Positions 1 through 60,158 of a stretch of 64,000 nt of DNA are shown piece by piece. The notes beneath the pieces were generated by a model. It did no database searches and was not told where the DNA came from. It worked only from the letters and a program-made list of their open reading frames with translations. The stretch comes from Candidatus Doudnabacteria bacterium (GTDB lineage Bacteria; Patescibacteriota; Doudnabacteria; UBA920): NCBI GenBank assembly GCA_016218585.1, contig JACRDK010000004.1, positions 21,347 through 85,346 on the forward strand, written 5' to 3'. Each line of letters opens with the position of its first letter. Position 1 is the first letter of the stretch. The translations under genes and the position numbers were made by a program.

Positions 1-254
1 AATTAAAAAACTGGCTTTGCTGAAAAAAGCTTTTTAAGCCAGAAACGTCTATTCCCGGAATTGGCACGTGGGCCAAAATTCTAGTTATGAATAAAAGACC
101 TAGCACAATTAAAATTTTGTTGCGCAGGTCTTTGGTTTTCCAAATAAGAGTGATTTTGTTCATAATAATCTAATGCGAATTACTAATTATTATGCGAATT
201 ATGCGAAAATTTTATTTTCATTTTTCGCATTTTATTTCGTATTATTCGCATTCG

Positions 255-680
255 TTATTTGACTGTGCCGCCAGCTTTTTCAACCTCTGCTTTAACGGAA
301 GCGGATACAGGCAACATAATATTTAATTTCTTTTTGATTTCACCTTTTAAAATTTTCACTTTCAAAACGCCGGAGTCAACCAAGCCTTTATCTTTTAAGG
401 CTTTTAAATCTACGGTTTCGCCTTCGTTGAAGACGCTGAGTTTGGAAAGGCTCAAAGCTAAAACTTTGTCATTCAAAGACCTAAAACCGCGGGACTTAGG
501 CAGCTGTCTTACGAGCGGTTGGCGGCCACCTTCAAAAGTCACGGGCATTTTGCTGTGACCGGTGCGCTTGGTCTGACCTTTGTTACCGCGAGTGGAATAA
601 GTACCTTTACCGCTACCCAAACCACGACCGACAACTTTGCGGCGGTGAATGGATTTTGATTCTTTTTTAACTGATGTAAT
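255..680 (-). CDS. rplO: 50S ribosomal protein L15; the true start is upstream of the ORF-track TTG and is non-canonical or uncertain
   Basis: Translation GRGxGSGKGTYSTRGNKGQ matches the L15 glycine-rich N-terminus. The conserved RRKVVGRG lies in frame upstream of the track start, with no in-frame ATG before a stop. Confidence 0.85.
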   Translation of the reverse strand: MTSVKKESKSIHRRKVVGRGLGSGKGTYSTRGNKGQTKRTGHSKMPVTFEGGRQPLVRQLPKSRGFRSLNDKVLALSLSKLSVFNEGETVDLKALKDKGLVDSGVLKVKILKGEIKKKLNIMLPVSASVKAEVEKAGGTVK

Positions 681-759
681 TTAAGCATAATCTGGTGAAT
701 TAGTAATTTAGAAAATTAGTGAACTAGTTTTCTAATTCTCTAGTTCTTATTCCTACACT

Positions 760-1269
760 TTACTTACGAAGTAACGCAAGCTTTTCTTTACTCTTCATTT
801 TCTTGAAAGCGGCGAATACTGCCTTAACGTTGTTCACTTTGTTGTTGGAACCCAACATTTTGCAGACAATATTCTTAACACCGGACAATTCCATAACAGA
901 ACGGACAGCGCCACCGGCAATAACTCCGGTACCTGGCTTAGCAGGCTTAAGCATTAAAGAGCTGGATTTGTACTTGATGTTAACTCCGTGCGGAATAGTT
1001 TCATTAACAAGAGGCAAAGTCACCATGTTCTTTTTGGCGGCATTAACAGCTTTGTTTACGCTTTCAGATACGTCGGCTCCTTTTTTCAAACCCATGCCAA
1101 CTTTACCTTTGCGATCACCAATAACAACCAAAGCTCTAAAGCGCATTCTTTTACCACCAGCAACTACGCGAGTAACTCTTTTTACTTCCACGACTTTCTG
1201 GTCGAATTCGCTTCTTTCGCGTTCGCCTTCTCTATTTGAATTCTTTCGTCTTTTTTCCATATTATTCAC
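760..1269 (-). CDS. rpsE: 30S ribosomal protein S5
   Basis: The VVAGGKRMRFRALVVIGDRKGKVGMGLKKG motif and its position between L18 and L15. Confidence 0.9.
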   Translation of the reverse strand: MNNMEKRRKNSNREGERERSEFDQKVVEVKRVTRVVAGGKRMRFRALVVIGDRKGKVGMGLKKGADVSESVNKAVNAAKKNMVTLPLVNETIPHGVNIKYKSSSLMLKPAKPGTGVIAGGAVRSVMELSGVKNIVCKMLGSNNKVNNVKAVFAAFKKMKSKEKLALLRK

Positions 1270-1339
1270 TAATTAACACTGATTATTAAAGGATAGACAC
1301 GGATCTGCGTTAATCCGTTTTCAATCCGTGTTTATTATT
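1270..1339. repeat. Intergenic repeat family R3 (CACGGAT hairpin); second copy at 2480-2569
   Basis: TTAACACTGATT...GACACGGAT.T...GTTAATCCGTTTTC..TCCGTGTTT is shared. Confidence 0.8.
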
Positions 1340-1693
1340 TTAAAACTCGAGCCCGCCTTCTCTAGCACCTTCTGCCAATGCCTTTATTCTACCATGATAT
1401 GCGAATCCGCCGCGATCAAAACTAACCGACTTGATATTTTTGGCCATGGCTTTGCCGGCAACCAACTTGCCTACTTCTTTGGCAATTTCGCTCTTTTTGG
1501 CTTTGGATTCAACTTCCAAGCTGGAAGCTGCGGCCAAAGTTTTGCCAACATTGTCATCAATTACTTGAGCGTAAATATGGCGGTTTGCCTTAAATACAGC
1601 CAAGCGTGGACGCTGGGCGCTGCCGGAAATTCTGCTTCTTACGCGGGTGTGGCGAATAGTTCTTTTTAAATTTTTCTGCTTCTGTCTGTTCAT
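1340..1693 (-). CDS. rplR: 50S ribosomal protein L18; start trimmed to the internal ATG (MNRQKQKN...)
   Basis: [23 protein letters not shown] is the typical L18 sequence; the track ORF is over-extended at its 5' end. Confidence 0.85.
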
Positions 1694-1807
1694 ATAATAT
1701 CGCTGAATGATGCGGAACTTAACGCTGAATGTCGCGGAAAGAACCACAACTTGTTAATTAAATTTCTGCGTACTTCCGCGTTATTTTCCGCGCGTTTCCG
1801 CGTTTAT
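1694..1807. repeat. Intergenic repeat family R1 (GCGGAA/TTCCGCG words), copy 1; copy 2 at 3859-3968 is about 95% identical
   Basis: ATCGCTGAATGATGCGGAACTTAACGC...GCGGAAAGAACCACAACTTGTTAATTAAATTTCTGCGTACTTCCGCGTTAT.TTCCGCG.GTTTCCGCGTT occurs in both rplR/rplF and rplE/rplX spacers. Confidence 0.85.
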
Positions 1808-2479
1808 TTATTTGCCGCCTCCGACTACTTTAACAACTTTACCGGCTTTGCGGATTATTACTTCATCGCTGTATTTAATTCCTTTTCCTTTGTATGGTTC
1901 CGGTTTTTTCAATTCTCTAATTTCAGCCGCAAACTGTCCAACCTGCTGTTTGTCCGGACCGGAAATGGTCATAACATTTTTTTCAATGGCAAAAGTCAGA
2001 TTTTCTGGTACTTGGACAAAAATCGGATGGGAAAAACCTAACTGCAAATCTATAACCATGCCTTTTAACTGTCCCAAGCGGGTCACCGCGTTGGCAAAAG
2101 TTTGAGCCTGTCCGGCTTGGTCTTTCTTTTCGGCGTCAGCCTGTTTAACCTGATAGGCTTTCTTTAACTCTTCGGCTTTCTTAACTTCCATTTTAAAACC
2201 AACACCGTTAAGTTCAAGTTTCTTTTCAAAACCTTTTGTTACGCCGTCTACCAAATTTTGAATCAAAGCGCGGAACAAACCCCAAAGAGCTTTTTCCTTC
2301 TTGTTCTCTTTGTTCTTCACGTCAACCAAAATTTCCTTTTCGCTTATGCTAACTTCCACTTTCGGGTTTAAAGGCAAAACTAAAGTACCCTTCGGACCGG
2401 TTACGGTCAAAGTTAAGTCCTTCTTTTCTGCTTTCACTCCCTGGGGGAGGCTAACTGGTTTTTTTCCGACTCTGCTCAT
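1808..2479 (-). CDS. rplF: 50S ribosomal protein L6 with an internal insertion of about 35-40 aa
   Basis: MSRVGKKPV...LGFSHP signature. The protein is 223 aa against about 178 aa normally; the extra segment is KAEELKKAYQVKQADAEKK... Confidence 0.85.
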   Translation of the reverse strand: MSRVGKKPVSLPQGVKAEKKDLTLTVTGPKGTLVLPLNPKVEVSISEKEILVDVKNKENKKEKALWGLFRALIQNLVDGVTKGFEKKLELNGVGFKMEVKKAEELKKAYQVKQADAEKKDQAGQAQTFANAVTRLGQLKGMVIDLQLGFSHPIFVQVPENLTFAIEKNVMTISGPDKQQVGQFAAEIRELKKPEPYKGKGIKYSDEVIIRKAGKVVKVVGGGK

Positions 2480-2569
2480 AAAATTAATATAAATTGATTA
2501 ACACTGATTTAGAACGGATGGACACGGATATCTCTGTTAATCCGTTTTCTGTCCGTGTTTGTCTGTTTT

Positions 2570-2962
2570 TTACCAAACCTGGCACACTACTTCTCCGCCC
2601 ATGCGGGACTTGCGAGCTTCTTTGTCAGTCATCAGACCTTTGGAGGTAGATACCACTGTAATACCATAACCGCTGTTAGTGCGAGGAAGCTTGTCTGCTG
2701 CTAAGTAAATTCTCTGTCCCGGTTTGCTTACTCTCTGAATTCCGCCAATTACCGCTTCGCCGCTTTCCGAGTATTTCAGAGTTATCTTCAACATTTTGTG
2801 CTTATCGGAGAACTCCTCAACGCCGCTAACGAAACCCTCTTTCAATAAAAGCTTTGCCAAGTTATCTTTGAAATTGGAATAGGGCAAAACCAGCTCGTTT
2901 TTGCGGGCTGCGCTTGCATTGCGAATGCGGGTTAACATGTCGGCGATTGGATCTGTGAACAT
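2570..2962 (-). CDS. rpsH: 30S ribosomal protein S8
   Basis: MFTDPIADMLTRIRNA N-terminus; gene order. Confidence 0.9.
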   Translation of the reverse strand: MFTDPIADMLTRIRNASAARKNELVLPYSNFKDNLAKLLLKEGFVSGVEEFSDKHKMLKITLKYSESGEAVIGGIQRVSKPGQRIYLAADKLPRTNSGYGITVVSTSKGLMTDKEARKSRMGGEVVCQVW

Positions 2963-3061
2963 AATTTTACTAAATACTAATTGTTTACTAATATGCTAAT
3001 CTTGATGAATCGTAAGTGAATTGTGTTATTTTGTAAGCAGAAATTCGTGCTTCGTAAAGTT

Positions 3062-3256
3062 CTACCAACTGGCTTTAACTACTCCGGGTATTTCCCCTTT
3101 GCTGGCTAATTCTCTAAAACAGATTCTGCACATATCAAAATCTCTCATATAACCGGCTTTACGGCCGCACTTCCAACAGCGCCTCACTACCCGAGTCTGG
3201 TATTTAGGATTTGTTCTGCTCCTTAAAGATTTTATGATTTGTGCTTGTGTAGCCAT
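3062..3256 (-). CDS. rpsZ: 30S ribosomal protein S14, zinc-ribbon type Z
   Basis: 64 aa with CWKCGR...CRIC Cys4 motif, between S8 and L5. Confidence 0.9.
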
Positions 3257-3318
3257 ACAAAATTAATTTAAGATACTAATCTACTAATTTATGCTAATGA
3301 TACTAACTCGGCTTTAAT

Positions 3319-3858
3319 TTATTTTTTAAACGGGAAGCCTAATAAAGTTAACAATTCTCTGGCTGGTGCGTCTTTGCCTGCGTTAGTAACAACAGAAATT
3401 TCTAAGCCAAAAACATTTTCTAGCGATTCGGAGGAAATTTCCGGGAAAACCAAGTGTTCTTTCATGCCGAGGTGATAATTACCTCTGCCGTCAAAACCAT
3501 CTTTGTTAATCCCCTGGAAATCGCGCACTCTTGGCAAAGCAACGTTTACCAGTTTATCCAAGAAGCTGTACATGCGGTAACCTCTTAAGGTGCAAACAAT
3601 ACCGACAACCTGGTTTTCTCTGACCTTAAATCCGGCAATGGATTTTCTGGCCTTAGTCTTAACCGGAGCCTGTCCGGTAATTTTCTTAACGTCTTCGACA
3701 TATTGGTCAATCTTCTTTTTGTCGTCCTTAACTTTACCAACACCGACGTTAACAATGACTTTAAGAATTTTCGGCACTTGCATAACATTCTTGTAGCCGA
3801 ATTTTTCTTTTAAAACCGGGACTATCTTCTTATTATATTGTTCCTGTAATCTTTCCAT
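3319..3858 (-). CDS. rplE: 50S ribosomal protein L5
   Basis: MERLQEQYNKKIVPVL...VNVGVG typical L5 sequence. Confidence 0.9.
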   Translation of the reverse strand: MERLQEQYNKKIVPVLKEKFGYKNVMQVPKILKVIVNVGVGKVKDDKKKIDQYVEDVKKITGQAPVKTKARKSIAGFKVRENQVVGIVCTLRGYRMYSFLDKLVNVALPRVRDFQGINKDGFDGRGNYHLGMKEHLVFPEISSESLENVFGLEISVVTNAGKDAPARELLTLLGFPFKK

Positions 3859-3968
3859 AAAATCGCTGAATGATGCGGAACTTAACGCGGACTATCGCGG
3901 AAAGAACCACAACTTGTTAATTAAATTTCTGCGTACTTCCGCGTTATCTTCCGCGTGTTTCCGCGTTG
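3859..3968. repeat. Intergenic repeat family R1, copy 2
   Basis: See copy 1. Confidence 0.85.
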
Positions 3969-4292
3969 TTAAACTGCTTTACCGCTGGTTCTGGCCATTC
4001 TCTGCTTGCTGCCATTTTCCAAAAAAGTAAATCCAACGCGGGATGGGTTGCCGGAATTCGGGTCGAGCAGCATAACTTTAGAAACATGGAGGGCTGCAAA
4101 AAATGTAACTTTCTTTCCTGGCTCGCCGGCTTTTTTAGACTTTTCAAACCTGGTATGGACATTAACGTTTTCCACCATCACCTTGGAGATTTTGGGTAAA
4201 ACTTTAATAACCTTGCCGGTCTTTCCTTTGTCTTTTCCGGAAATGACTTTTACGGTATCGCCTGTCTTAATTTTTAGTCTGTTATTATTCAT
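3969..4292 (-). CDS. rplX: 50S ribosomal protein L24
   Basis: KIKTGDTVKVISGKDKGKTGKV is the KOW motif. Confidence 0.9.
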   Translation of the reverse strand: MNNNRLKIKTGDTVKVISGKDKGKTGKVIKVLPKISKVMVENVNVHTRFEKSKKAGEPGKKVTFFAALHVSKVMLLDPNSGNPSRVGFTFLENGSKQRMARTSGKAV

Positions 4293-4418
4293 ATCTTTAC
4301 TAAATACTAATTGATACTAATATACTAATCATTAAATGTTGGGTAATCTTTGAGAGTAAGAATTCGTATATTCGCCTGCCTGCCGGTAGGCAGGTACAAA
4401 TTCGTACTTCGTAAAGTT
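4293..4418. repeat. Intergenic repeat family R2 (ACTAAT and GAATTCGTA words). Copies also lie at 2963-3061, 3257-3318 (partial), 5378-5483, 5901-6020 and 7373-7482
   Basis: CTTTACTAAATACTAATTGATACTAATATACTAAT...AGTAAGAATTCGTATATTCG[P20]TACAAATTCGTACTTCGTAAAGT. Confidence 0.85.
4375..4394. repeat. 20-bp perfect palindrome P20, CCTGCC(T)ACCGGCAGGCAGG; other copies at 7439-7458, 13399-13418 and 24476-24495
   Basis: Exact copies. Two are inserted into R2 copies (R2 at 5378-5483 lacks it), one is inside the partial tRNA-Leu copy, and one is upstream of tuf. Confidence 0.85.
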
Positions 4419-4811
4419 TTAAATTACTTCTGGTGCCAAGCTGACAATTTTCTTAAATCCATCTTCAAAGGAGCCTTTAGCTTTTTCGCGAATTTCTCTC
4501 GGGATAGGACCGAATATGCGGCTTCCTTTTGGCTCACCTTTTTCTTTATCTACAATCACTCCGGCATTTTCATCAAAGCGTATATAAGATCCGTCTTTTC
4601 TGCGAATTTCTTTGCGCAAGCGAACAATTACCGCATAAACTTTATCACCCTTCTTTAAGGAAGAGTTCGGCGCAACCTGCTTGACGGAGCCGGCAACAAT
4701 GTCGCCGATTCTGGCAAAACGATTGCTGTTTTTTCCGTTGACGGAGAAAACATTGACGATCTTTGCGCCAGTATTGTCTGCTATATTAATCCAGGATCTT
4801 ACTTGTAACAT
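4419..4811 (-). CDS. rplN: 50S ribosomal protein L14
   Basis: MLQVRSWINIADNTGAK N-terminus. Confidence 0.9.
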   Translation of the reverse strand: MLQVRSWINIADNTGAKIVNVFSVNGKNSNRFARIGDIVAGSVKQVAPNSSLKKGDKVYAVIVRLRKEIRRKDGSYIRFDENAGVIVDKEKGEPKGSRIFGPIPREIREKAKGSFEDGFKKIVSLAPEVI

Positions 4812-4919
4812 ATAATTCTTTCGCTAGTGCACGGAGGTTGTAGACTCCGCGGATATCATTGACCAAAGCAATTCCTTTTGATCAGCGCTATCCGTGGAAT
4901 CTGCGTATCCGCGAGATAA

Positions 4920-5162
4920 CTAAATTTTATTAATTACTTTAAACTTCTTATCTTTGCTTATTGGTTTAACCGATTCAATCACCACACGGTCTCCGGTTTT
5001 ATACTCATTCGCTTCATCATGAGCTTTAAAACGCTTGGAAATAGTGTAAGATTTTTTATACTTAGCGTGGCGCTTTCTCATATCTACCTTTACCACCACG
5101 GTTTTGTCCATTTTATCGGACACTATAACACCGGTAAGTTGTTGCTTCTTTGATTGTGTCAT
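4920..5162 (-). CDS. rpsQ: 30S ribosomal protein S17
   Basis: LTGVIVSDKMDKTVVVKV; gene order. Confidence 0.85.
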   Translation of the reverse strand: MTQSKKQQLTGVIVSDKMDKTVVVKVDMRKRHAKYKKSYTISKRFKAHDEANEYKTGDRVVIESVKPISKDKKFKVINKI

Positions 5163-5176
5163 ATACTTGATACCTA

Positions 5177-5377
5177 CTACTTAATGCTTTCAACTTTCTT
5201 CTGATTTAGATAAGTCATTATACGGGCAATGTCTTTTTTAACCGCTCCCAATTCCCGGGGGTTCTTTAACTGATTGAGGCGGATTTTAACCGCTAAATCG
5301 TGAGCTTTAGCGCGCAATTCGAGCAACAAGCTTTTAATTTCACCTTCTGATTTAGTTGTTAATTCCTTAAATTTCAT
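5177..5377 (-). CDS. rpmC: 50S ribosomal protein L29
   Basis: 66 aa, MKFKELTTKSEGEI...LRAK; gene order. Confidence 0.8.
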   Translation of the reverse strand: MKFKELTTKSEGEIKSLLLELRAKAHDLAVKIRLNQLKNPRELGAVKKDIARIMTYLNQKKVESIK

Positions 5378-5483
5378 ATCTTTACTAAATACTTATTGAT
5401 ACTAATATACTAATTTTAATCTAAAAGGTAATTTATGGAAGTAAGAATTCGTATATTCGTACAAATTCGTACTTCATAAAGTT

Positions 5484-5900
5484 TTAACCTTGCTTTTCTT
5501 TAACTAAGAATCTGGATTTTACCGGAAGTTTGTAGCTGGCTAATCTCATAGCTTCCTGGGCCTGCTCTCTGGTCACCCCGTCCATTTCAAATAAAATCTT
5601 GCCTTTTTTTACAACTGAAACAAAGTGGTCAACAGCACCTTTACCGCCACCCATAGGGCTTTCGTTTCCGTGGAGGGTAACCGGTTTGTCGGCAAATACG
5701 CGGATCCAAATTTTACCGCCTCTTTGCACATAGCGAGTCATAGCGCGGCGGGCTGCTTCAATCTGACGAGCGGTAACCCAGCTGCTTTCCATGGCTTTTA
5801 AGGCAAAGGTGCCGAAAGCGATTTGTTCGCCGGCGGAAGCCTGTCCTTTAGTATGACCGCGGTGATGTTTGCGGTGTTTTAACTTTTTCGGGATAAACAT
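5484..5900 (-). CDS. rplP: 50S ribosomal protein L16
   Basis: MFIPKKLKHRKHHRG N-terminus. Confidence 0.9.
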   Translation of the reverse strand: MFIPKKLKHRKHHRGHTKGQASAGEQIAFGTFALKAMESSWVTARQIEAARRAMTRYVQRGGKIWIRVFADKPVTLHGNESPMGGGKGAVDHFVSVVKKGKILFEMDGVTREQAQEAMRLASYKLPVKSRFLVKEKQG

Positions 5901-6020
5901 ATCGGTTAAATTTACTATCTTTACTAACTACTAATCGGTACTAATATACTAATCTGTGATTATTAAATTGGTATATTCGTAAAAATTAGTAGTTAGTAAA
6001 GTAAGAGAATTAATTAACAA

Positions 6021-6704
6021 TTAGGCTTTTTTTGGAGCGTCGGCGATATCTTTTACAAAGGTTTTCTTACTTTCAAATACGTCTCCTTTATAAATCCAGA
6101 TTTTTACTCCGACAGTTCCGTAAGTGGTAAAAGCAGTGCTTCTGGCAAAATCTATATTGGCGCGCAAGGTATGAAGAGGAATTTTACCGGAGGAAAGATG
6201 TTCTGTGCGGGCAATATCAGCCCCGTTCAACCTACCGCCAATTGCTACTTTTGCTCCCTTAGCACCGGCGTTCATCATCTGTTCCAAGGACTGCTTCATC
6301 AGTTTTCTAAAAGCAACGCGCTTTTCCAACTGTTCGGCAATGCCGTTAGCAATAACTTGAGCTTGCAGGTTAACTTCTTTAATATCTTCGATGTTAACTT
6401 TTAATTCCTGCTTAATCCCCAACTTCGCTTTAATCTTTTTCTTAAGCTCTTCAATGCCGGCGCCGCCTTTGCCGATTATTAAACCCGGTTTAGTGGTTTT
6501 AATAATGACAGTAATAGTGCCGTCGTTTAAGCGCTCAATGTCGATTCTAACCAAGCCGGCCTTTTTCAAATGCAATTCCAAATATTCGCGAATTTTTACG
6601 TCTTCAGCCAATTGCTTGGAGTAGTTCGCTTTGGAAAACCATCTGGACTTCCAGGTATCGGTTATCTTCAATCTTAGTGATGTTGGGTTTATCTTATGTC
6701 CCAT
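6021..6704 (-). CDS. rpsC: 30S ribosomal protein S3
   Basis: MGHKINPTSLRLKITDTW N-terminus; KH domain. Confidence 0.9.
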   Translation of the reverse strand: MGHKINPTSLRLKITDTWKSRWFSKANYSKQLAEDVKIREYLELHLKKAGLVRIDIERLNDGTITVIIKTTKPGLIIGKGGAGIEELKKKIKAKLGIKQELKVNIEDIKEVNLQAQVIANGIAEQLEKRVAFRKLMKQSLEQMMNAGAKGAKVAIGGRLNGADIARTEHLSSGKIPLHTLRANIDFARSTAFTTYGTVGVKIWIYKGDVFESKKTFVKDIADAPKKA

Positions 6705-6793
6705 AATTTTAGTTAAAAGTTAATCAGGTTAATCAAGTTTATCAAGTCATTTACTTTGCAACTTTATGAACTTGATAACTTTATAAACTCGTT

Positions 6794-7372
6794 TTATACT
6801 CCGGTTTTTCTGTTAAATAATCTGCGTTTGTTGGCAACTTTGTTCATCTTTACTTCTTCATCAGTCTTGAACACCTGGCTCTTTTTCGGTGCGGCATTTA
6901 CCGGCTTCTTGCTTACTGCGTCTTGCTGGTCAACATTTTCAGGTTTAACTTCTTTGCCTTCAGTTTTCTTTAAGAAGCCAAGCTTGGTTTTGCTGGCTTT
7001 GGCCTTCTTCTTTTCTTCCAGCACAACATTAACGTGGCTCATCTTTCTTCTAATTACGAAAGCGCTGCCGCGGGCTCTGGGGAAATAACGCTTCATTTCT
7101 TTGCCCTGGTCGGCGGTAATGCTTTTTATAAACAAAAACTGAGGATCTAAAGAAAAATTATTCTTGGCATTGGCAATGGCGGACTGAAGTAATTTAATAA
7201 CAATCGGGGCAGCCTTTTTGTTGGCATGCTGGAGCTGGACAATCGCGTCCATCGCATTCATGTTCTTGATTAAATTAGTAACCAAGCGCATTTTTCTTGG
7301 GGCAATATGAATATGCCGGGCTGAAGCCTTAACCAATTTTCCGTTATTCTGTTTAGTTGCTTGCTCTGTCAT
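6794..7372 (-). CDS. rplV: 50S ribosomal protein L22 with a Lys-rich C-terminal extension of about 70 aa
   Basis: ASARHIHIAPRKMRLV core. The protein is 192 aa against about 110 aa normally. Confidence 0.85.
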   Translation of the reverse strand: MTEQATKQNNGKLVKASARHIHIAPRKMRLVTNLIKNMNAMDAIVQLQHANKKAAPIVIKLLQSAIANAKNNFSLDPQFLFIKSITADQGKEMKRYFPRARGSAFVIRRKMSHVNVVLEEKKKAKASKTKLGFLKKTEGKEVKPENVDQQDAVSKKPVNAAPKKSQVFKTDEEVKMNKVANKRRLFNRKTGV

Positions 7373-7482
7373 ATTACTATATTTACTAAATACTAATTTT
7401 AAATGGTTTAAATTTTGGAATAAGAATTCGTATATTCGCCTGCCTGCCGGTAGGCAGGTACAAATTCGTACTTCGTAAAGTG

Positions 7483-7815
7483 TTACTTCTTGCTGTCGTC
7501 TTTGGCGGCGTTAAGCTTGGCCTTTTCGGCTTCGGCTTTGGCTAATTCTTGTTCTTTAGCCATCTTACCACCATGACGGAGGAACTTACGAGTCGGAGAA
7601 AATTCTCCAAGCTTGTGGCCTACCATGTTTTCTGTAACGAATACCGGAACGTGAGTACGGCCGTTATGAACCAGGAAAGTAAAGCCTACAAACTCAGGGG
7701 CAATAGTGCAGGATCTGGACCAAGTTTTAATTTGGGTCTGACCGGCCTTGCCGTTTTGCACTTTCTTTACCACTCTCGGGTCTACGTATGGTCCTTTTTT
7801 TAGTGATCTAGACAT
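7483..7815 (-). CDS. rpsS: 30S ribosomal protein S19 with a C-terminal extension
   Basis: [12 protein letters not shown]...TFLVHNGR. Confidence 0.9.
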
Positions 7816-7900
7816 AAAATCAGTTCTTAAAGTTAATCAAGTTTTAAAGTTTATAAAGTTATGCCGTCCACTTGATGAACTTGATAACTTGATAAGCTTG

Positions 7901-8737
7901 TTACTTACTGCGTCTCTTAATAATCATTTTATTGCTGTATTTCTTCTTGCTTCTGGTCTTAACGCCAAGGGCATGTTTACCCCATGGAGTCTTTGGATAT
8001 TTCATACCAATCGGGTTATGACCTTCACCACCACCATGAGGGTGATCTACCGGGTTCATAACTTTACCGCGAACAGTTGGTCTCCAACCCATCAAGCGCA
8101 TTCTGCCGGCCTTGCCAATACGGACATTCATCCAATCGGAATTAGCTAACTGGCCAACTGTGGCTAAACAGGTTTCTCTGACTCTGCGGATTTCACCGCT
8201 TGGTAATTTAAGCAAAGCATAACCGGCTTCAACTGTCTGCAAGGTGGCATAAGCTCCGGCGCTTCTAGCCATTCTGCCGCCCTGTCCTGGAGTTAACTCA
8301 ATATCATGTATAAAAGTACCAACTGGAATATTTTTAATAGCTAAGCGGTTTCCCGGTAAAATTTCAGCTGTTTCGCCGAACATAACTTTGTCGCCAACTT
8401 TTAAACCCTGGGGGGTTAAAATAAAACGCTTGGCTCCATCATTATAGTGCAATAAGGAAATAAAAGCTGTGCGGGTCGGATCGTATTCAATGGTAACAAC
8501 TTTCGCCGGGATATTCTTTTTATCTTCACGGGAAAAATCCACCAAGCGAACTTTGCGGATAGCGCCGCCGCCCTGATGGCGAACGGTGATTTTTCCGCTG
8601 TTGTTGCGTCCGGCCGGTTTGGCTTTGGAAACTATCAAACCCTTCGGGGTCTTGGAAGTTTTATGCAAAACCGAATAATCGGTCACACTTTGAATGCGCC
8701 TTCCTGCGGATGTTGGTTTGTATAATTTAACGGCCAT
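7901..8737 (-). CDS. rplB: 50S ribosomal protein L2
   Basis: [14 protein letters not shown]...[10 protein letters not shown]. Confidence 0.9.
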
Positions 8738-8840
8738 AGTTAGATTTAAAAAATTAAATAATATTTAAATGATTGGGCATGATTTTAGCAATCTAATTCT
8801 TGTCATTCTTAATTAATCATACCAATCTTGTCAATTACGT

Positions 8841-9197
8841 TTATATTACGTCGGTTAAGCCTTCAATTTTGTCGCCCTTTTTCAAAGTGACAATGGCTTT
8901 TTTAAAAGATGAGGTTCTGCCGCTGCGCTGGCCAAAGTTTCTCTGTTTGCCGCGGTTGATTACCATATTCACCTGCAAAACTTTTACCTTATAAGCATCT
9001 TCAACAGCTTTCTTAACTTCCACTTTGTTTGCGCCCATGCCAACTTTAAACACGTACTTGTTTAGTTTAACTAAGTGGCCGGCTTTCTCGGAAATTCTCG
9101 GGCTTACCAACACGCTAGGAATCCTAATGGCTGGGGCTCCGGCTGTTTCAGTTGCCTTTTCGGCAGTTGTAGTTTTCTTCTTGCTAATAATAGCCAT
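8841..9197 (-). CDS. rplW: 50S ribosomal protein L23 with an N-terminal extension
   Basis: Gene order, with a KYVFKV...core. Confidence 0.75.
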   Translation of the reverse strand: MAIISKKKTTTAEKATETAGAPAIRIPSVLVSPRISEKAGHLVKLNKYVFKVGMGANKVEVKKAVEDAYKVKVLQVNMVINRGKQRNFGQRSGRTSSFKKAIVTLKKGDKIEGLTDVI

Positions 9198-9202
9198 AAA
9201 AA

Positions 9203-9856
9203 TTACTTAACGTTATTCTTCAAATAGGTTTTTTCAATAACCTGCAAGCTGTCCTTTAATACTATCATGCTATCGGCTTTCAAGATATCCAGAAGATTCA
9301 GGCTGCTAGCTAATATTGGAGTGACAAAAGGGAGATTGCGGGAGCTGCGGACTAATTTGTCGTCTTTCTTTGCCATGACCAACAATTGCTTTTTGCCGGA
9401 ATTTTTTACGGCATTCTTTAAGCCGTCTAAAATTTTGGCCATATCTTTGGTCTTTGGATTTTCCATGGAAATCTGATCGACAACTATGAACCGGTTTTCT
9501 TTAGCCTTGTCGGAAAGAGTCATAAACAAAGCCTGAACTTTAGCTTTTTTATTCAACTTTAATTCCCAATTGCGGTTGCTGCGCGGTCCAAAGGTTACTC
9601 CACCATGACGCCAAATCGGGCTGCGGGTGCTGCCAGCTCTAGCTCGGCCGGTACCTTTTTGCTTCCAAGGTTTTTTACCGCCACCAGATACTTCACCGCG
9701 GGTTTTGGTATGAGCAGAACCCTGGCGGGCATTTGACTGTTGGATGCGAACCGCTTCCGCGAGCAAATGAGTTTTAGGCTTAACGTCAAAGATTTTGGAA
9801 TTTAATTCCACATCCCCGACAACTTCCGCTTTTTGGTTGTAAAGATTTACTTTCAT
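9203..9856 (-). CDS. rplD: 50S ribosomal protein L4
   Basis: 217 aa with a Gly/Arg-rich loop (KQKGTGRARAGSTRSPIWRHGG). Confidence 0.85.
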   Translation of the reverse strand: MKVNLYNQKAEVVGDVELNSKIFDVKPKTHLLAEAVRIQQSNARQGSAHTKTRGEVSGGGKKPWKQKGTGRARAGSTRSPIWRHGGVTFGPRSNRNWELKLNKKAKVQALFMTLSDKAKENRFIVVDQISMENPKTKDMAKILDGLKNAVKNSGKKQLLVMAKKDDKLVRSSRNLPFVTPILASSLNLLDILKADSMIVLKDSLQVIEKTYLKNNVK

Positions 9857-9932
9857 AACTTGAGTGAATTAGTGATACACAGATCTAGTGAGTTAGTTAT
9901 CTAATTCTCTAACTCTCTTTTTCTCTAGCTTG

Positions 9933-10598
9933 CTACTTCTTTTTCTTATCGTCTTTTACTTTAGGAATTATTACTAAAGGTTTAACTTTTCCGGTGGAAA
10001 TAACTTTTATAGTTCCATTTCTGTGTCCCGGAACCGCACCCTTTAAAGTAATTAAATTATTTTTAGCATCAACTTCGACAATCTGTAAATTCTTTACTGT
10101 AACCTGCTCAACGCCCATATGTCCGGACATTCTTAGGCCCCTGCGGGTATGCTGAGGAAAACGTTGACCAATGGAACCGACAGAGCGGGGCTTGTTATGA
10201 CCGTGGCTGGCTGGGAAACCGGCGAAACCGTGGCGCTTCATTGCACCGGCGAAACCGCGTCCCTTACTTATGCCAATAACATTAACCACTTCACCCGGAA
10301 CAAAGCTGCTAATTTCCAATTTCTGTCCGCGTTCGTATTTGTCGTTTTCGCCTACGCGAAATTCCGACAAAACGCCAAAAGTACCCAAATCCTTTAGGTG
10401 TCCCTGTAAAGATTTAGATACTTTTTTCTTTTTGTCGATACCGACTTGCACTGCATTATATTTATCTTTGCCACCGGCAGACTTAACCTGGGTAACAACC
10501 ATAGATCCGGCCTTAACAACAGTAACCGGAATTACTTCGCCGGTTGCTTCGTCAAAATACTGAGTCATATTGAGTTTCTTGCCTATCAAAAAGTTCAT
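9933..10598 (-). CDS. rplC: 50S ribosomal protein L3
   Basis: LIGKKLNMTQYFDEATGEVIPVTVV. Confidence 0.9.
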   Translation of the reverse strand: MNFLIGKKLNMTQYFDEATGEVIPVTVVKAGSMVVTQVKSAGGKDKYNAVQVGIDKKKKVSKSLQGHLKDLGTFGVLSEFRVGENDKYERGQKLEISSFVPGEVVNVIGISKGRGFAGAMKRHGFAGFPASHGHNKPRSVGSIGQRFPQHTRRGLRMSGHMGVEQVTVKNLQIVEVDAKNNLITLKGAVPGHRNGTIKVISTGKVKPLVIIPKVKDDKKKK

Positions 10599-10821
10599 AG
10601 TTTGGTAATAAGTTAAAAAAAACGGGCCGATTTGCCCGTAAGTATCAACACGGAATCAATACCATGTTGGTTCTTGCTGGTAAATCGTTGTCCCATTGGT
10701 TGACCCGTTACGACGGGTTTGGCCTATGAGAACTAATTTCCAAATAATTTGATTGTTTTATTTGCGCAATCTACGCCCGCCTGCAACGCATATGCGTAGC
10801 ATTTCGGGCAGGTATCTGCGA

Positions 10822-11145
10822 TTACGACATCTTAATCTCTACATCCACACCGGCCGGAAGATTTAAGTTAGTAAGGGCGTCGATGGTTTTAGGAGTTGCG
10901 GAAACTATATCAATTAATCTTTTATGAACGCGCATTTCAAACTGTTCGCGGCTGTCTTTGTGAACGAAAGTAGAACGAAGTACTGTGTACTTAGTTTTTT
11001 CCGTAGGCAGCGGAATTGGGCCTGAAATAGTCGCCCCGGTCCTTTTGGCCGTGTCAACAATTTGTTTAGAGCTCTGGTCAATAAGCTTATGATCGTAAGC
11101 TCTAATCTTTATACGAATTTTGGGAGCGGCTGGTTGCTTGTCCAT
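10822..11145 (-). CDS. rpsJ: 30S ribosomal protein S10
   Basis: [17 protein letters not shown]. Confidence 0.9.
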
Positions 11146-11376
11146 TTGTTAAGATGCTCTTAACTTGATTAATATGGGCTACAAAACAAGGCTTTTTAAA
11201 GCCCTTGTAGCACTTGCAATATTTTATACGAACCCTGAGATTTTGTCAAATAGCAAATCTGCTCAAAACCTAAATGACCAAATGCCAATTATCCACCCCA
11301 AAACAGCTTAAAAATATGCTTTTACCTCTGTTTTTCACAAATTCCGCTTAATTATAAGCATTTTCAGTAAAAACCA

Positions 11377-11405
11377 TTGACAAAATACTTAAAAAATGCT
11401 ATAAT
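11377..11405 (+). promoter_or_regulatory. Near-perfect sigma70 promoter, TTGACA-17 bp-TATAAT, driving the small ORF at 11443
   Basis: TTGACA at 11377-11382, a 17-nt spacer and TATAAT at 11400-11405. An AAGGAGGG ribosome-binding site lies 8 nt before the ATG. Confidence 0.6.
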
Positions 11406-11442
11406 CTTTGGGTTAAATTTCCTTTAAGGAGGGAGAATAGAA

Positions 11443-11688
11443 ATGACTGTAAGGATAGAGCGACTGGCTGTGAGAATGTCAATTTTCCTCTATGGCATTC
11501 TGAACGCGATTTTCGTGGGCATCGCCTATAAGCCGGCCATGTCCTACACAAAAAGCTCATCGGGAGAGTTGGCAAACCTGCTGACGATGCTTCTGATTGA
11601 AGCCCTTGTGTTGTTCAACCTCGCGATAGCGGCAACAGCCCTACTCATGAGGCTTGAGAAAAAACCTGACGCCACGACTCAAACGTAA
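11443..11688 (+). CDS. Small hydrophobic protein (81 aa, two predicted TM helices), antisense to the ribosomal-protein and tuf genes
   Basis: Consensus promoter, strong ribosome-binding site and two tandem terminators; local GC is higher than the surroundings. Confidence 0.55.
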   Translation: MTVRIERLAVRMSIFLYGILNAIFVGIAYKPAMSYTKSSSGELANLLTMLLIEALVLFNLAIAATALLMRLEKKPDATTQT

Positions 11689-11719
11689 ACAACCCGGGCT
11701 TGCCCGAGATGGCAAGCAG

Positions 11720-11806
11720 ACAGCGCAGACCTTTACCGGCCTGCGCTGTTTTCAATTTCTTAATACAAACTAAAACTCCCCTCGCGAAAGCGGGGGGAGT
11801 TTTTTC
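11720..11806 (+). terminator. Tandem rho-independent terminators
   Basis: CAGCGCAG...CTGCGCTG+TTTT, then CTCCCCTCGCGAAAGCGGGGGGAG+TTTTTT. Confidence 0.6.
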
Positions 11807-11845
11807 TACAAGCTAATTACTACTTACTACTAACTAGTAATTAAG

Positions 11846-13033
11846 CTATTTGATGATTTTAGTAACAACACCAGCGCCTACGGTATGGCCACCTTCGCGA
11901 ATAGCGAATTTGCCTTTTTCTTCCAAAGCGACCGGAGTAATTAATTTCACAACCAACTTTACGGTGTCTCCTGGCATAACCATTTCCTGACCTTCCGGCA
12001 AGGTAACGTCACCAGTAACATCGGTGGTGCGAATATAGAATTGCGGCTTATAACCCTTAAAGAACGGGGTATGGCGTCCGCCTTCTTCTTTGCTCAAAAT
12101 ATATACTTCGGTTTCAAACTCGGTATGAGGAGTAATGGAACCCGGTTTGCACAAAACTTGTCCGCGTTCTACTTCTTCTTTCTTAGTACCGCGGAGCAAA
12201 ATTCCTGCGTTGTCCCCTGCCATACCGCTGTCCAACTGCTTGTTGAACATTTCGATACCGGTAACAACAGTCTTAGTTGTTGGCTTTAAACCAACAATTT
12301 CAATTTCATCGGATAATTTAATTTCACCGCGTTCGATTCTACCGGTAACTACGGTACCGCGTCCTTCAATGGAGAAGATGTCTTCAATCGGCATTAAGAA
12401 CGGTTTGTCGGTTTCGCGCTTCGGATCCGGGATGTAGGTGTCCAAATATTCAACAAGTTTCAAAATGGAACCTTCGCCCATTTCAGAAGTGTCTCCTTCC
12501 AAGGCTTTCAAAGCAGAACCGCGAACAATCGGGGTGTCTTTGCCTGGGAATTCGTATTTGGTCAAAAGGTCGCGAATTTCTTCTTCAACCAATTCCAAAA
12601 GTTCAGCATCCTGAACCATATCGCACTTGTTCATGTAAACAATAATGTAAGGAACACCTACCTGCTTGGCTAACAAAATGTGTTCGCGAGTCTGCGGCAT
12701 AGGACCGTCAGTAGCGGATACAACCAAGATGGCTCCGTCCATTTGAGCAGCACCGGTAATCATGTTCTTGATATAGTCGGCGTGTCCCGGACAGTCAACG
12801 TGGGCGTAGTGGCGCTTAGCGCTTTCATATTCCACGTGAGCAGTGTTAATGGTAATACCACGGGCTTTTTCTTCCGGGGCATTGTCAATGCTGTCGTAGG
12901 CGCGAGCCTTGGCTCCACCAGTTTTAGACAGAACTGTAGTAATAGCAGCAGTAAGGGTGGTTTTGCCGTGGTCAACGTGACCAATGGTACCAACGTTTAC
13001 GTGCGTTTTGCTACGGTCAAATTTGTCTGCCAT
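11846..13033 (-). CDS. tuf: Elongation factor Tu
   Basis: [15 protein letters not shown] and the full-length EF-Tu sequence. Confidence 0.95.
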
Positions 13034-13459
13034 TTGAATTTGCCTTTCTTTCGGAGAATCGGATTGTCGGAGAATCGGAAATAAAGTTTTGGCTTAATTT
13101 TCCGACTTTCTGATTTTTCTGATTTTCCGGGTTGCCCGAGACCCCCTCATCACTAATGCTTATCGATAAGGCATCAGTGCCGAGGGTATCTCTTTCTTTC
13201 CTTACGGAATCCAGGGCATTTGATTAATTAATTTTTACCCGCCTTAAGCTCGAAAGCTTTGGTTAGGGCTAGAACTTATTTTAAAGATATTTTGCCTTGC
13301 TGTCAAACAGCATAATGTGATACTGATATACAAATACATTCGGATGATACTGATAATACCGATTCGCTCTTTGTCAGTTTGTCAGTATCTTTATTAACCC
13401 TGCCTACCGGCAGGCAGGCGTATTATCAGTATTCAAATCTGTATATCTGCATCATAGCT

Positions 13460-13816
13460 CTATAAATCTTCCATATCCATCTTTGGGCCTTCAAAGTCAA
13501 AACTCGGATCTATGACCTCAGCGCGCAAATCCACCCTGGGAAATGCCCGCTCGCTAATTATAACCGGCCCTTTAACCGCCGCCTCGGGAACAGACGGCGC
13601 GGGCGAAACAGGAGCCTCTTCCTGTAATTGCGCATTTAAAATTTCCCTATTTATTTTTTCAACATCCAAAATTTGTTTTTGCAGTTTTCCCAGCAGCAGG
13701 CGCTGATATTCCGCCAGCGGCAAAATTACCAATTGTGTCTCCCCTGTTTCATCAATAACAAAAAACTTGCCTCCATCGGCCTTGGCTAAATTTATAATAT
13801 CCTTTAATGAATTCAT
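13460..13816 (-). CDS. Hypothetical protein; the N-terminus weakly resembles a Phd/YefM-type fold (QLVILPLAEYQRLL)
   Basis: 118-aa ORF; motif similarity only. Confidence 0.35.
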   Translation of the reverse strand: MNSLKDIINLAKADGGKFFVIDETGETQLVILPLAEYQRLLLGKLQKQILDVEKINREILNAQLQEEAPVSPAPSVPEAAVKGPVIISERAFPRVDLRAEVIDPSFDFEGPKMDMEDL

Positions 13817-13951
13817 GATTTTTCTTTCTTAATTTCCCGCCAGGGGCGGGCATTCCCTAATTTCATTCTCATTATACGCCTCTTAGAAAGGCTTTACAAC
13901 TTTCTAAATAATTTGGTATTCTTGGGACTAGAATTTTGCAGGAGGATTGCG

Positions 13952-14320: not shown

Positions 14321-14550
14321 AACCTCCTTACCGCAAAACAAGAACAGCTTTGTGCCGGCGGGTCCGTAAGGACTCCGCCGGCATCATCATTTTTATATTT
14401 TATAAATTGTGCAGATTTGGACGATCGTCAGAATATGTACAAAGATAAAAATGTAAAATACTCTGAAAGCTCTAAATTTAAAACAGGCCAATGCAATCGC
14501 ATTGGCCTGTTTTTATCTGTACTATCTGTTCCCATCCGTAATCCGTGATT

Positions 14551-16671: not shown

Positions 16672-16864
16672 AAATAAATATTAGATTAGAGATTTAAGAA
16701 TTAAACTTTTATTTTTAATTTTGAAGTTTCCAAAACTTTTGTAACAGTCTATCAAGCTTTTAAAGTTGTAAAGTTTTTCAAGTTTCTACATCCGCTTTAT
16801 GAACTTAACGGACACGGCTAACTTGATAAACTTTACAAACTTGATGAACTTTTAACTCGTCGCT

Positions 16865-17431: not shown

Positions 17432-17519
17432 ATGTTTATTCCACTAATTCACGAATTCTCACTAATTTCACGAATACCACTTAGTGTGATTCGTGATGAT
17501 TAGTGAATTCGTGGATAAA
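17432..17519. repeat. Repeat family R6 (CACGAAT words) immediately downstream and upstream of rpsL; second copy at 17934-18019, about 90% identical over about 75 bp
   Basis: CACTAATTTCACGAATA.CACTTAGT.T.ATTCG.GATGATTAGTGAATTCGTGGATAAATTATT occurs on both sides of rpsL. Confidence 0.85.
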
Positions 17520-17933: not shown

Positions 17934-18310
17934 TTTTTCTCCACCAATTCTCGAATTAACACTAATTTCACGAATACTACTTAGTATAATTCGCGATGAT
18001 TAGTGAATTCGTGGATAAATTATTTTCTTGAATACTTTAAATAGCCATAAAAAAACTGACAAAAGATGTCAGATCTTTCGCGCTCGCCTGCTTGGTACTC
18101 ATCAGAAACCTTTTGATGTTTCTTCCCTCCCCTCCTAAGGGGAGGGTGAAGGGAGAGGTTGTCTTCCCAAAACTTGCGACTAATAAATAGTGATTCAATC
18201 GCCAATACGCTGATATGCACAGATTGCGCGGATTTCTGCATCCGTGTTATCTGTTGCTATTTGCGTATTTGCGACTGGGCTTCTTATTCAATTAAACACA
18301 TTATACAGAA

Positions 18311-20046: not shown

Positions 20047-20229
20047 AAAATCATACTCTCATTTTATCATTCTAACATGCTAACATATTTTACCTCAGAT
20101 AATATTAGTATGTTAATATGCTTAAATGTTAAACTGTATTCCTTCTTGACCATTATAACAAACTGTGTTAATCTATACAAAGTTAGATTTTATATCTTAC
20201 ATCTTATATCATAAATCCTAAATTATTTT

Positions 20230-29852: not shown

Positions 29853-29969
29853 AATATTCAGATTTACGAATAGAACGAATCTACAGATACCTACAGATTC
29901 AAATTGTGTTGCCTTGGAAAATTAACATCTGTAGTTATCTGTAAATCTGTTTTCATCTGTATATCGGAA

Positions 29970-32861: not shown

Positions 32862-32897
32862 AGGTTTATTATTAATCGTAGTCTGCCGATTTATCGG

Positions 32898-44108: not shown

Positions 44109-44312
44109 AAATCTACAAAATTAAAAATTAATCTGACACTACAGAAACCTACAGAACCTAAACTTTATAAACGCTTAAATAATGAAATTCTGTGAGTTTC
44201 TGTAGTGTTCCTCGCCGGTTTATTCTGAAGTATTATACCAAAACCGCCATATTTTGGCTAATTACTAAAACAGCCACTTTGTCAGTGACTGTTTTAGATT
44301 TATAGTTTCTAG

Positions 44313-60122: not shown

Positions 60123-60158
60123 ATCTTTGATTCTACGCTAAAACCTGCTATACTGACA

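Follow-up and report, generated by a model that had tools for sequence, protein, structure and literature searches.

How can the genes of the S10-spc cluster stand apart from each other, when this is the most conserved gene array in bacteria and its tight junctions are thought to enforce an equal output of ribosomal proteins by translational coupling? The question is raised by a stretch of 64,000 nt from a Candidatus Doudnabacteria bacterium (assembly GCA_016218585.1, contig JACRDK010000004.1, positions 21,347 to 85,346; the whole stretch is here called the window), in which nearly every junction of the cluster is occupied by a spacer. The answer that we favour, and that we regard as somewhat probable, is a lineage-specific invasion of stop-start junctions by families of word-built hairpin repeats, the copies of which were later kept by purifying selection.

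The S10-spc genes all lie on the minus strand of the window. The cluster begins with S12, S7, EF-G, an open reading frame (ORF) of 118 aa and EF-Tu, and then continues in the order S10-L3-L4-L23-L2-S19-L22-S3-L16-L29-S17-L14-L24-L5-S14-S8-L6-L18-S5-L15-secY, with L30 being absent. From L3 to secY, 17 of the 19 junctions hold non-coding spacers of 62-126 nt; an earlier note on this DNA, which had ascribed a spacer to every junction, was thus right for nearly all of them, the exceptions being L4>L23 with 5 nt and L29>S17 with 14 nt. Spacer-type sequence as in S10-spc is found also at S12>S7, at S7>EF-G, and in the leader before S12. The spacers make up 3.5% of the window, and the words of which they are built are 5-25x enriched in them; in this window family members occur only within 164-18025.

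The spacers recur in families, and the five that had been named R1 to R5 were borne out by spacer comparisons. In R1, the copies at 1694-1804 and 3857-3967 are 95% identical over 111 nt, and among the five copies of R2, those at 4340-4421 and 7404-7485 share 90% over 82 nt. The copies of R3 are 79% identical over 73 nt, those of R4 77% over 53 nt, and those of R5 77% over 74 nt, with a further related sequence at 16740-16857. The L23>L2 spacer represents a sixth family, termed 'TTGACAAG', with 16 members in 7 genomes, the window included, and the S17>L14 and L15>secY spacers are singletons of the same design. The individual elements are the following, all on the minus strand (fold z-scores are from dinucleotide-preserving shuffles, except that of S7>EF-G, which is from mononucleotide shuffles; L002 and L032 are two of the close relatives introduced below):

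164..254, minus: L15>secY spacer, 91 nt, a singleton with ATGCGAA x3 / TTCGCAT x3; hairpin, z = -3.25.
687..759, minus: S5>L15 spacer, 73 nt, R4, with GAGAATTAG / CTAATTCAC words; 88-92% identical to L032 copies; weak fold, z = -1.06.
1261..1339, minus: L18>S5 spacer, 79 nt, R3, with ACGGAT / ATCCGT words; z = -3.76.
1694..1807, minus: L6>L18 spacer, 114 nt, R1, with CGCGGAA x3 / TTCCGCG x3; z = -2.88.
2480..2569, minus: S8>L6 spacer, 90 nt, R3; z = -2.75.
2963..3061, minus: S14>S8 spacer, 99 nt, a degraded R2 copy; fold not significant, z = -0.60.
3257..3318, minus: L5>S14 spacer, 62 nt, with TTAGTA words only, resembling by inspection the 3' half of R2; no hairpin, z = -0.55.
3859..3968, minus: L24>L5 spacer, 110 nt, R1; z = -4.61.
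4293..4418, minus: L14>L24 spacer, 126 nt, R2, with a nested 20-nt GC palindrome, CCTGCCTACCGGCAGGCAGG; z = -3.91.
4812..4919, minus: S17>L14 spacer, 108 nt, a singleton with a GC-richer hairpin of CGCGGAT / CACGGAT words; z = -3.50.
5378..5483, minus: L16>L29 spacer, 106 nt, an R2 hybrid with TACGAA in the 5' arm and TTAGTA in the 3' arm; 88% identical to the L14>L24 spacer of L002; z = -2.95.
5901..6020, minus: S3>L16 spacer, 120 nt, R2 of the TACTAA / TTAGTA subtype; a long, near-perfect hairpin, z = -6.96.
6705..6793, minus: L22>S3 spacer, 89 nt, R5, with AAGTT / AACTT words; 92% identical to the orthologous L032 spacer; z = -2.56.
7373..7482, minus: S19>L22 spacer, 110 nt, R2, with the nested GC palindrome; z = -3.28.
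7816..7900, minus: L2>S19 spacer, 85 nt, R5; 86% identical to the S17>L14 spacer of L002; z = -2.35.
8738..8840, minus: L23>L2 spacer, 103 nt, 'TTGACAAG' family; weak fold, z = -1.14.
9857..9932, minus: L3>L4 spacer, 76 nt, R4; 93% identical to the orthologous L032 spacer; z = +0.23.
16672..16864, minus: S7>EF-G spacer, 193 nt, with an R5-related hairpin at ~16740-16857; z = -4.8.
17432..17519, minus: S12>S7 spacer, 88 nt, of a CACGAAT / ATTCGTG family; 89% identical to 17932-18028; z = -6.32.
17934..18025, minus: 5' leader of S12, the second CACGAAT copy, adjoining the S12 start codon with no stop codon before it; promoter at 18328-18300; z = -5.09.
~20047..20145, minus: leader upstream of an M50 peptidase gene, by inspection of the same design, with TAACAT / ATGTTA words.
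29853..29969, minus: spacer between the leucyl-tRNA synthetase and Sua5 genes, thus non-ribosomal, of the same design, with ACAGAT x4 / ATCTGT x3; z = -4.07.
~44109..44210, minus: leader upstream of a class II aminoacyl-tRNA synthetase gene, by inspection of the same design, with ACAGAA / TTCTGTAG words.

An element typically consists of 2-4 tandem words of 6-10 nt that are followed by an apex, then by their reverse complements, and finally by an A/T-rich tail of ~10 nt that ends ~0-4 nt before the next start codon, and the complete unit is flanked by a stop codon plus 0-8 nt on one side and by 0-4 nt plus the ATG on the other. A period of 7 is the commonest in the arms (50 of 114 strongly periodic arms), followed by 8, 9, 10, and 14. 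The apex ACTGCAG is common to six families, and inverted symmetry extends over the whole length, with terminal inverted repeats such as CTTTAC...GTAAAG at the R2 ends. Copies are also found in the 5' leaders of first genes, again flush before the ATG. The elements are strongly oriented, with 265 pairs in the same and only 6 in opposite orientation, and their halves differ in composition: the 5' arm is purine-rich and the 3' half next to the ATG is G-poor and T-rich (58% versus 46% purine, 19% versus 12% G), which persists when each family is represented by one member. Identity is higher in the arms (0.75-0.84) than at the apex (0.60-0.63). At the first tenth of the element, identity depends on the junction (0.74 in same-junction and 0.55 in different-junction pairs), at the last tenth it does not (0.71 and 0.69), which suggests that what remains of the old junction is found next to the stop codon and that the tail on the ATG side is part of the element.

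In a set of 257 spacers, a single hairpin covers at least 60% of the spacer in 207 native sequences but only in 141 shuffled ones, and the stem of this hairpin has a median distance of 3 nt from the preceding stop codon and of 10 nt from the following ATG. In the window, 12 of 17 spacers have a significant fold, with z between -2.35 and -6.96, the other five being both R4 copies (S5>L15 and L3>L4), S14>S8, L5>S14, and L23>L2. The design of a word and its reverse complement, from which folding into hairpins had been deduced, is thus correctly described, whereas the hairpins themselves do not extend to R4, some R2 copies and L23>L2. Conserved micro-ORFs, which had been considered as an alternative content of the spacers, can be rejected, as the longest complete ORFs have 0-27 codons and differ between copies of the same family (0 versus 6 codons in R1).

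The regularity of the pattern had also led to the suggestion of an artificial or engineered origin, and this regularity is all that speaks for an assembly, chimeric or engineered artefact. However, an independent Logan assembly (SRR12113407) is 100% identical to 4388-7450, i.e. over 3063 bp with five spacers, and its contig ends inside two R2 copies, as repeat-broken assemblies do. Moreover, this architecture recurs, together with its repeat families, in ~15 environmental genomes that come from independent studies and different sites, and an artefact can therefore practically be dismissed.

A comparison of the operon in related CPR genomes, as had been proposed, bears on the origin of the spacers. 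A search with the S3 protein gave 37 related loci, the records of which variously name Candidatus Doudnabacteria, Saccharibacteria or Patescibacteria, and junction lengths were measured in all 80 loci, including 40 outgroups. Junctions of at least 55 nt, of which the window has 17 in 19, account for 12-18 of the 16-19 junctions in the close relatives L002, L004, L005, L009, L032, L034, L035, and L037 (17/17 in L009, 18/19 in L035, 16/18 in L034, 17/19 in L004), and altogether the window and ~15 relatives have long spacers at most junctions and share spacer families. Intermediate genomes have 2-8 long junctions, five further relatives (L008, L020, L022, L023, and L036) have none and median junctions of 4-29 nt, and in the 40 outgroups the junctions are tight, with per-genome medians that themselves have a median of 18 nt; the gene order is fixed in all compared genomes. 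Because of the tight junctions in the outgroups and in the five relatives and the low numbers in the intermediates, the long spacers are, to judge from these sequences, a derived and graded trait of one Candidatus Doudnabacteria subclade, with abutting genes, as in the deeper relatives, being ancestral.

Within this subclade, the families have not stayed in place. In an all-versus-all comparison of 334 spacers, 290 inter-genome pairs were at different junctions and only 42 at the same junction, besides 170 pairs within genomes. R2 alone, with 25 members, is spread over 12 junctions in 10 genomes, L24>L5 is occupied by at least 8 different word families across genomes, unrelated families often occupy the same junction in close relatives, and L29>S17 is empty in >20 genomes and holds varied families in the rest. 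As related genomes have the same families, but mostly at junctions that do not correspond, the families must be regarded as dispersed, mobile repeats. The dispersal is not limited to ribosomal genes: a metagenome scan with an R2 15-mer returned 120 loci, 107 of which were chance matches, and 12 of the 13 real R2-like elements lie between non-ribosomal genes, the neighbours resembling by their N-terminal sequences NusA, RuvB, rfb, UvrA/UvrB, aminoacyl-tRNA synthetases, and guaB/purA. The orientation in these 13 loci is ambiguous since this subfamily is almost perfectly palindromic. Such spacers were also found in an ABC-transporter operon of a Patescibacteria contig (L207). The repeats are thus dispersed, change their junction between genomes, and are oriented, and the possibility of a genome-wide invasion similar to repetitive extragenic palindromic (REP) sequences or miniature inverted-repeat transposable elements, raised from the window alone, gains support from the presence of the same families in many genomes at non-orthologous and non-ribosomal junctions. 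Two arm patterns were without match in viral contigs, where phage vehicles might have been recognized.

Some further repeats touch on this dispersal. The palindrome CCTGCCTACCGGCAGGCAGG lies at ~4381-4400 and ~7445-7464, at the same site of two R2 copies, with a near-identical free intergenic copy at ~24490, and its nesting in R2 makes it a repeat within a repeat; the S8>L6 spacer of L002 holds a larger nested insert at this R2 position. Another kind of repeat, with CCTCTCCC / GGGGAGGG words, is found at 42350-42400, 42752-42791, and ~18100; in the window it flanks a DUF559 endonuclease-like gene, and in L004 and L012 this repeat forms 140-245 nt elements that fill ribosomal junctions. In the 3' arm of an R5 copy (7816-7860, minus strand), TTAACTTTAAGAA is positioned just upstream of the S19 start; it appears identical to the T7 gene-10 'epsilon' translational enhancer, probably by coincidence.

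Could the spacers have arisen locally, with no transposition at all? Slippage of words together with intrastrand template switching that copies arm onto arm could generate the architecture, and microhomology-mediated copying, helped by the similarity of ribosomal-protein genes to one another at their A-rich ends and starts, could spread it from junction to junction. In line with this, the R2 subfamilies (TACGAA)n/(TTCGTA)n and (TACTAA)n/(TTAGTA)n carry their difference in every word and in both arms, as if one variant had been copied through all words and both arms had changed together, the window R2 is a hybrid with one mismatch per word, which combines 5' TACGAA and 3' TTAGTA words, the tandem period is 7, and neither a transposase nor a target duplication has been found. 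Yet families are 85-93% identical at different junctions of genomes in which synonymous sites are near saturation, copies also stand beside unrelated non-ribosomal genes, and copies of the same family are barely clustered along the operon (5.78 versus 6.43 junction steps, p = 0.04), a marginal difference by which local hopping along the operon was rejected as well. A local origin is thus improbable.

Once resident, the copies change slowly. At four-fold degenerate sites of ribosomal-protein genes, the window and its nearest relatives have 39-53% identity, whereas spacer identity to relatives reaches 82-93%. The L3>L4 (93%) and L22>S3 (92%) spacers of the window are more similar to their orthologues in L032 than is the coding DNA on either side, and these orthologues are more alike than paralogues within one genome, which argues for descent with slow change and not for recent re-insertion. 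In 30 pairs of the same junction and the same family, mean spacer identity is 0.76 and equals that of the adjacent ribosomal-protein coding DNA. As synonymous sites are conserved far less than the copies (~50% versus up to 93%), the copies are constrained, and judging from these identities, resident copies are under purifying selection and are not junk.

The spacers are most likely part of the message. Strong sigma-70-type promoters are found only at 18328, 13306, and 11249, upstream of S12, EF-Tu, and S10, respectively, and inside S10-spc there is a single weak promoter-like match (8834-8805, in the L23>L2 spacer), because of which a general role of the spacers as internal promoters was rejected. 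Terminators were not detected in the repeat spacers on the transcribed strand between S10 and secY. Without strong internal promoters and terminators, the spacers can be expected to be co-transcribed in one operon. A Shine-Dalgarno sequence is absent from 24 of the 25 cluster genes, in agreement with the earlier note, but it is absent also from 37 of the 41 other window genes, and its lack is thus a genome-wide trait and not a property of the spacers.

On this basis, the favoured invasion may be outlined as follows. The spacers would be copies of small mobile repeats, 60-125 nt long and non-coding, that fall into at least eight families, and in one Doudnabacteria subclade these repeats would have inserted themselves into the short gaps that separate a stop codon from the following start, and into some 5' leaders as well. 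Most copies would fold back in the mRNA and thereby bring the stop and the next start within a few nucleotides at the foot of the stem, and coupling of termination and reinitiation could then survive without Shine-Dalgarno use. Insertions would thus be tolerated in the essential operon, and later mutations in the copies would be selected against. Whether the hairpins are tolerated or serve as mRNA punctuation concerns their function, which we infer.

Several observations weigh against such an invasion by tolerated hairpins. The R4 and 'TTGACAAG' families fold no better than shuffles and yet are 82-93% conserved, so that maintenance of a hairpin alone cannot explain the constraint, and for 'TTGACAAG' no consensus RNA structure emerged from RNAalifold. 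Of the two strands, it is the antisense that folds slightly better (177 versus 99, p = 6e-8), and the mRNA strand has the smaller number of G-U pairs (495 versus 755), a trend opposite to that expected from selection on the mRNA fold, which leaves no RNA-specific signature. Start codons are no more accessible with native than with shuffled spacers (unpaired probability 0.529 versus 0.511, p = 0.06), and an 'insulation' of start sites by the hairpin is thus not supported. The conservation estimate from the 30 pairs is biased to pairs that are still recognizable by BLAST. By inspection, ~19 of 25 translation-cluster junctions are filled in the window, as compared to ~4 of 38 other co-directional junctions and leaders, a difference in density that neutral insertion does not explain. 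As to mobility, the window ORFs include no transposase with ends matching the spacers and no DDE transposase, the repeat that flanks the only transposase-like gene in the window, that of a REP-associated tyrosine transposase (RAYT), namely GTAG-N3-GCCGATNNATCGGC, has three matches in the window (the third at 24322-24335) and none in spacers, and no target-site duplication could be defined, as no genome pair is close enough to compare empty and filled sites.

In a rival explanation, the host would have selected the elements as mRNA punctuation, the hairpin and its A/U-rich tail forming a module of processing and stability. RNase III acting on the stem, or RNase E/Y/J acting on the tail, would cut the transcript into units, the hairpin would shield the 3' end of a unit from 3'-5' exonucleases such as PNPase, and each unit would begin a few bases before its AUG, which would suit an organism without Shine-Dalgarno sequences; the repeats would then have spread because they are useful, above all in the most highly expressed operon. 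Resident copies are indeed conserved above the neutral rate and sometimes above flanking coding DNA, their orientation is constant with a G-poor, T-rich tail by the ATG, first genes have copies in their 5' leaders directly before the ATG, the copies are concentrated strongly in the translation genes of the window, and PNPase is encoded in the window. There are also precedents in ERIC and Correia repeats, which alter mRNA stability (PMC3184786), and reportedly in the intercistronic expression elements of plastids (PMC2230500). On the other hand, families with differing sequences are interchangeable between junctions, with which no single sequence-specific factor is compatible, 5 of the 17 window spacers have no significant hairpin, the mRNA strand lacks a G-U signature, and many related genomes do without spacers. 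Host-selected punctuation is therefore rather unlikely, and the RNA processing or partitioning named in the earlier note is kept as a rival.

The conserved families that do not fold raise the question whether the words act in the DNA. They could be binding sites in double-stranded DNA, for instance of a nucleoid- or topoisomerase-type protein that relieves supercoiling where an operon is heavily transcribed, or they could resemble uptake signals of natural transformation, and the hairpin potential would merely result from sites in both orientations. Gyrase binding by REP sequences and the mosaic elements that contain them (BIMEs), and DNA uptake sequences in inverted pairs, are precedents for such arrays. 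The conservation of R4 and 'TTGACAAG' without significant RNA fold, the arms being more conserved than the apex, and the enrichment of spacers between the most conserved and most transcribed genes would all agree with this. However, at least eight unrelated words in one genome do not fit to one receptor or binding protein, and neither the strictness of the orientation nor the location right at the ATG has a rationale at the level of DNA, which makes DNA-level arrays highly improbable.

If the invasion by mobile repeats is correct, the question of their movement arises. When 40 ORFs from beyond the ribosomal cluster, which include nearly all those in the window with 90 aa or more, were scanned against Pfam, only a Y1 transposase, the RAYT, and one Xer-like tyrosine recombinase were detected. 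The RAYT (32898-33311, minus strand, 137 aa) is single-copy, scores 77.4 bits with NCBIfam NF047646 and thus just under the 80-bit cut-off, has the motifs HVH and YYEH, and is flanked by inverted GTAG-N3-GCCGATNNATCGGC hairpin repeats at 32885-32898 and 33335-33348. An identical copy of this protein is on record from a Candidatus Doudnabacteria MAG. The RAYT has 1076 homologues at E below 1e-10, many of them in Patescibacteria and in differing gene neighbourhoods, and in the relative L202 canonical REP doublets are found at operon junctions (1705-1765 and 7188-7253). A link between the spacers and the RAYT of the window was considered and rejected as unproven, since its REP is missing from the spacers. 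Fixed orientation, a 3' end by the ATG that belongs to the element, a better antisense hairpin, and the lack of a duplication would be expected of a strand-specific mechanism with single-stranded DNA, and copying by such a transposition of the Y1/RAYT kind is our best guess.

The same features permit a further idea, which combines mobility with use: the elements could be a new class of portable intercistronic module and not tolerated parasites, each a hairpin of heptamer words with a short A/U tail that is inserted directly 5' of starts in a strand-specific, Y1/RAYT-like manner and kept by the host for the re-initiation or processing of cistrons that lack a Shine-Dalgarno sequence. Hints in this direction are a conservation equal to that of ribosomal-protein coding DNA even in unfolded elements, the element-borne 3' tail with what is left of the former junction near the stop codon, the near-fixed orientation, and the better antisense hairpin. 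At present such a module appears unlikely, but with it the lineage would owe the stoichiometry of its ribosomal proteins to domesticated mobile DNA.

Attenuation, which had been listed among the possible roles of the spacers, is not a property of the repeats, as a clear U run after a stem, by which a terminator or attenuator could be identified, is found only in a separate leader:

10599..10821, minus: S10>L3 spacer, 223 nt, not of a repeat family; conserved structured leader, then an intrinsic terminator whose stem (10639-10622) precedes a T run.

The core of this leader has the form GTGAATTAGTTCT-stem-AGAAAACGATTTAC and is present in 13 Doudnabacteria, several of which have otherwise tight junctions; 9 of 20 predicted pairs are compensatory across the 13 genomes, and a separate local hairpin is located at the 5' end of the spacer. 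Rfam had no match at E <= 1 for 10599-10821, and in the whole window only 4 tRNAs reached the gathering score, with no match to a spacer family. The S10>L3 leader is a candidate for a new ribosomal-protein attenuator.

Besides the spacers, the cluster and the rest of the window have some features of their own. The gap between EF-G and EF-Tu measures 1.5 kb and contains as its only ORF the one of 118 aa (13460-13816, minus strand), which has no Pfam match. Long gaps in this region extend over 11146-11845, 13034-13459, and 13817-14550, with 700 nt between EF-Tu and S10, and Rfam gave only sub-threshold, non-significant matches at 11695-11871. The start of L15 (rplO, ~650-686, minus strand) is out of frame because a Pro codon has 1 nt fewer than in all relatives (AATCCAAAA -> AATCAAAA). 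A -1 slip at an A_AAA_AAG heptamer, 6 nt upstream of the deletion, would restore the full-length protein with two residues changed, but a programmed frameshift at this heptamer was rejected, as the slippery sequence is the ancestral coding for Leu-Lys-Lys and the lesion is the deletion of 1 nt 6 nt downstream; a sequencing error, a pseudogene or frameshifting are possible causes of the frame break. Elsewhere, the leucyl-tRNA synthetase (29970-32861, minus strand) has a NUDIX hydrolase domain inserted after its editing domain (aa 383-500), and the divergent intergenic region at 60123-60273, upstream of the gene of the Xer-like tyrosine recombinase, has two direct copies of AAATGCATTATGCGACAT, a possible operator.

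What is gained from these spacers is first of all an exception. Small repeats normally avoid essential regions, and here is a lineage of tiny, uncultured, reduced-genome Candidate Phyla Radiation (CPR) bacteria in which almost every S10-spc junction is filled with interchangeable repeats that are conserved about like genes. Among intergenic repeats the spacers are a variant of their own, which stands out because it saturates the essential operon that is conserved most; a full-text search of one library found no description of them, which is not proof of novelty. If they are merely tolerated, a self-folding insert can be invisible to coupling without Shine-Dalgarno sequences, and if they are used, mobile DNA has become part of the control of ribosome biogenesis. 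In practical terms, the repeats can serve as lineage markers, and since they break assemblies inside ribosomal operons, as seen from the Logan contig ends, they bear on the reported absence of ribosomal genes from metagenome-assembled genomes (PMC9723686).

How, then, do the spacers relate to known systems? Integron attC sites were considered and rejected, as by inspection there are no RYYYAAC/GTTRRRY cores at the element ends and the gene order is fixed. The heptamers of cyanobacteria known as short tandemly repeated repetitive (STRR) sequences, which Mazel and colleagues are said to have described in 1990, reportedly are intergenic tandem 7-nt units with several unrelated families per genome. 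STRR sequences form longer arrays in one direction, however, whereas the spacers have 2-4 words that are always accompanied by the inverted set ~20-40 nt away, in a unit that lies exactly between the stop and the start codon. In the early mRNA of phage T7, RNase III sites lie between cistrons, and these are unique, fixed and non-mobile, with cleavage shown; they have in common with the spacers that a stem-loop stands between nearly every cistron of a long transcript. The same likeness applies to the plastid intercistronic expression elements, and these as well are reportedly unique, fixed and non-mobile, with cleavage shown (PMC2230500), whereas the spacers are interchangeable repeat families that are known here from sequence.

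The invasion itself has a counterpart in sponge mitochondria, where small hairpin families reportedly invaded, time and again, the intergenic gaps of a compact genome (PMC2800124). In that case the host genome is that of an organelle and not of a free-living (episymbiotic) bacterium. We know of no word architecture or orientation rule in the sponge elements.

Another comparison is with ERIC and Correia repeats, which alter mRNA stability (Delihas 2011, PMC3184786). Like the spacers, they are imperfect palindromes over their whole length (~100-150 bp), are co-transcribed, often in operons, can change the fate of the mRNA, and differ in location between related strains. However, they have terminal inverted repeats, a TA target duplication and both orientations, whereas the spacers have one orientation (265:6) and, in the scanned window ORFs, no parent insertion sequence with the same ends, and they are made of arms of heptamer-scale words and nearly saturate one operon.

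There is also a relation to REPINs, i.e. REP doublets that form hairpins and are associated with RAYT transposases (Bertels and Rainey 2011, PMC3116915, PMC3337134). Both are non-coding, extragenic hairpin repeats of ~50-110 nt with several families per genome and a long-conserved sequence, and the spacers, too, persist in their lineage with changing positions. In addition, the window has a single-copy RAYT with flanking inverted REPs, and true REPINs occur at the junctions of L202. The unit of a REPIN, however, is an imperfect palindrome of 20-40 nt with a GTAG-type 5' tetranucleotide, whereas the arms of the spacers are non-palindromic and consist of tandem direct words with a period of 7-10, and the spacer families share neither an end motif nor a GTAG-type tetranucleotide. 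The REP that flanks the RAYT (GCCGATNNATCGGC) is missing from them, and the families far outnumber the one RAYT seen. Finally, the repeats of Pseudomonas leave 'repeat deserts' around essential genes (PMC3184786), whereas the spacers described here sit in the essential ribosomal operon itself.

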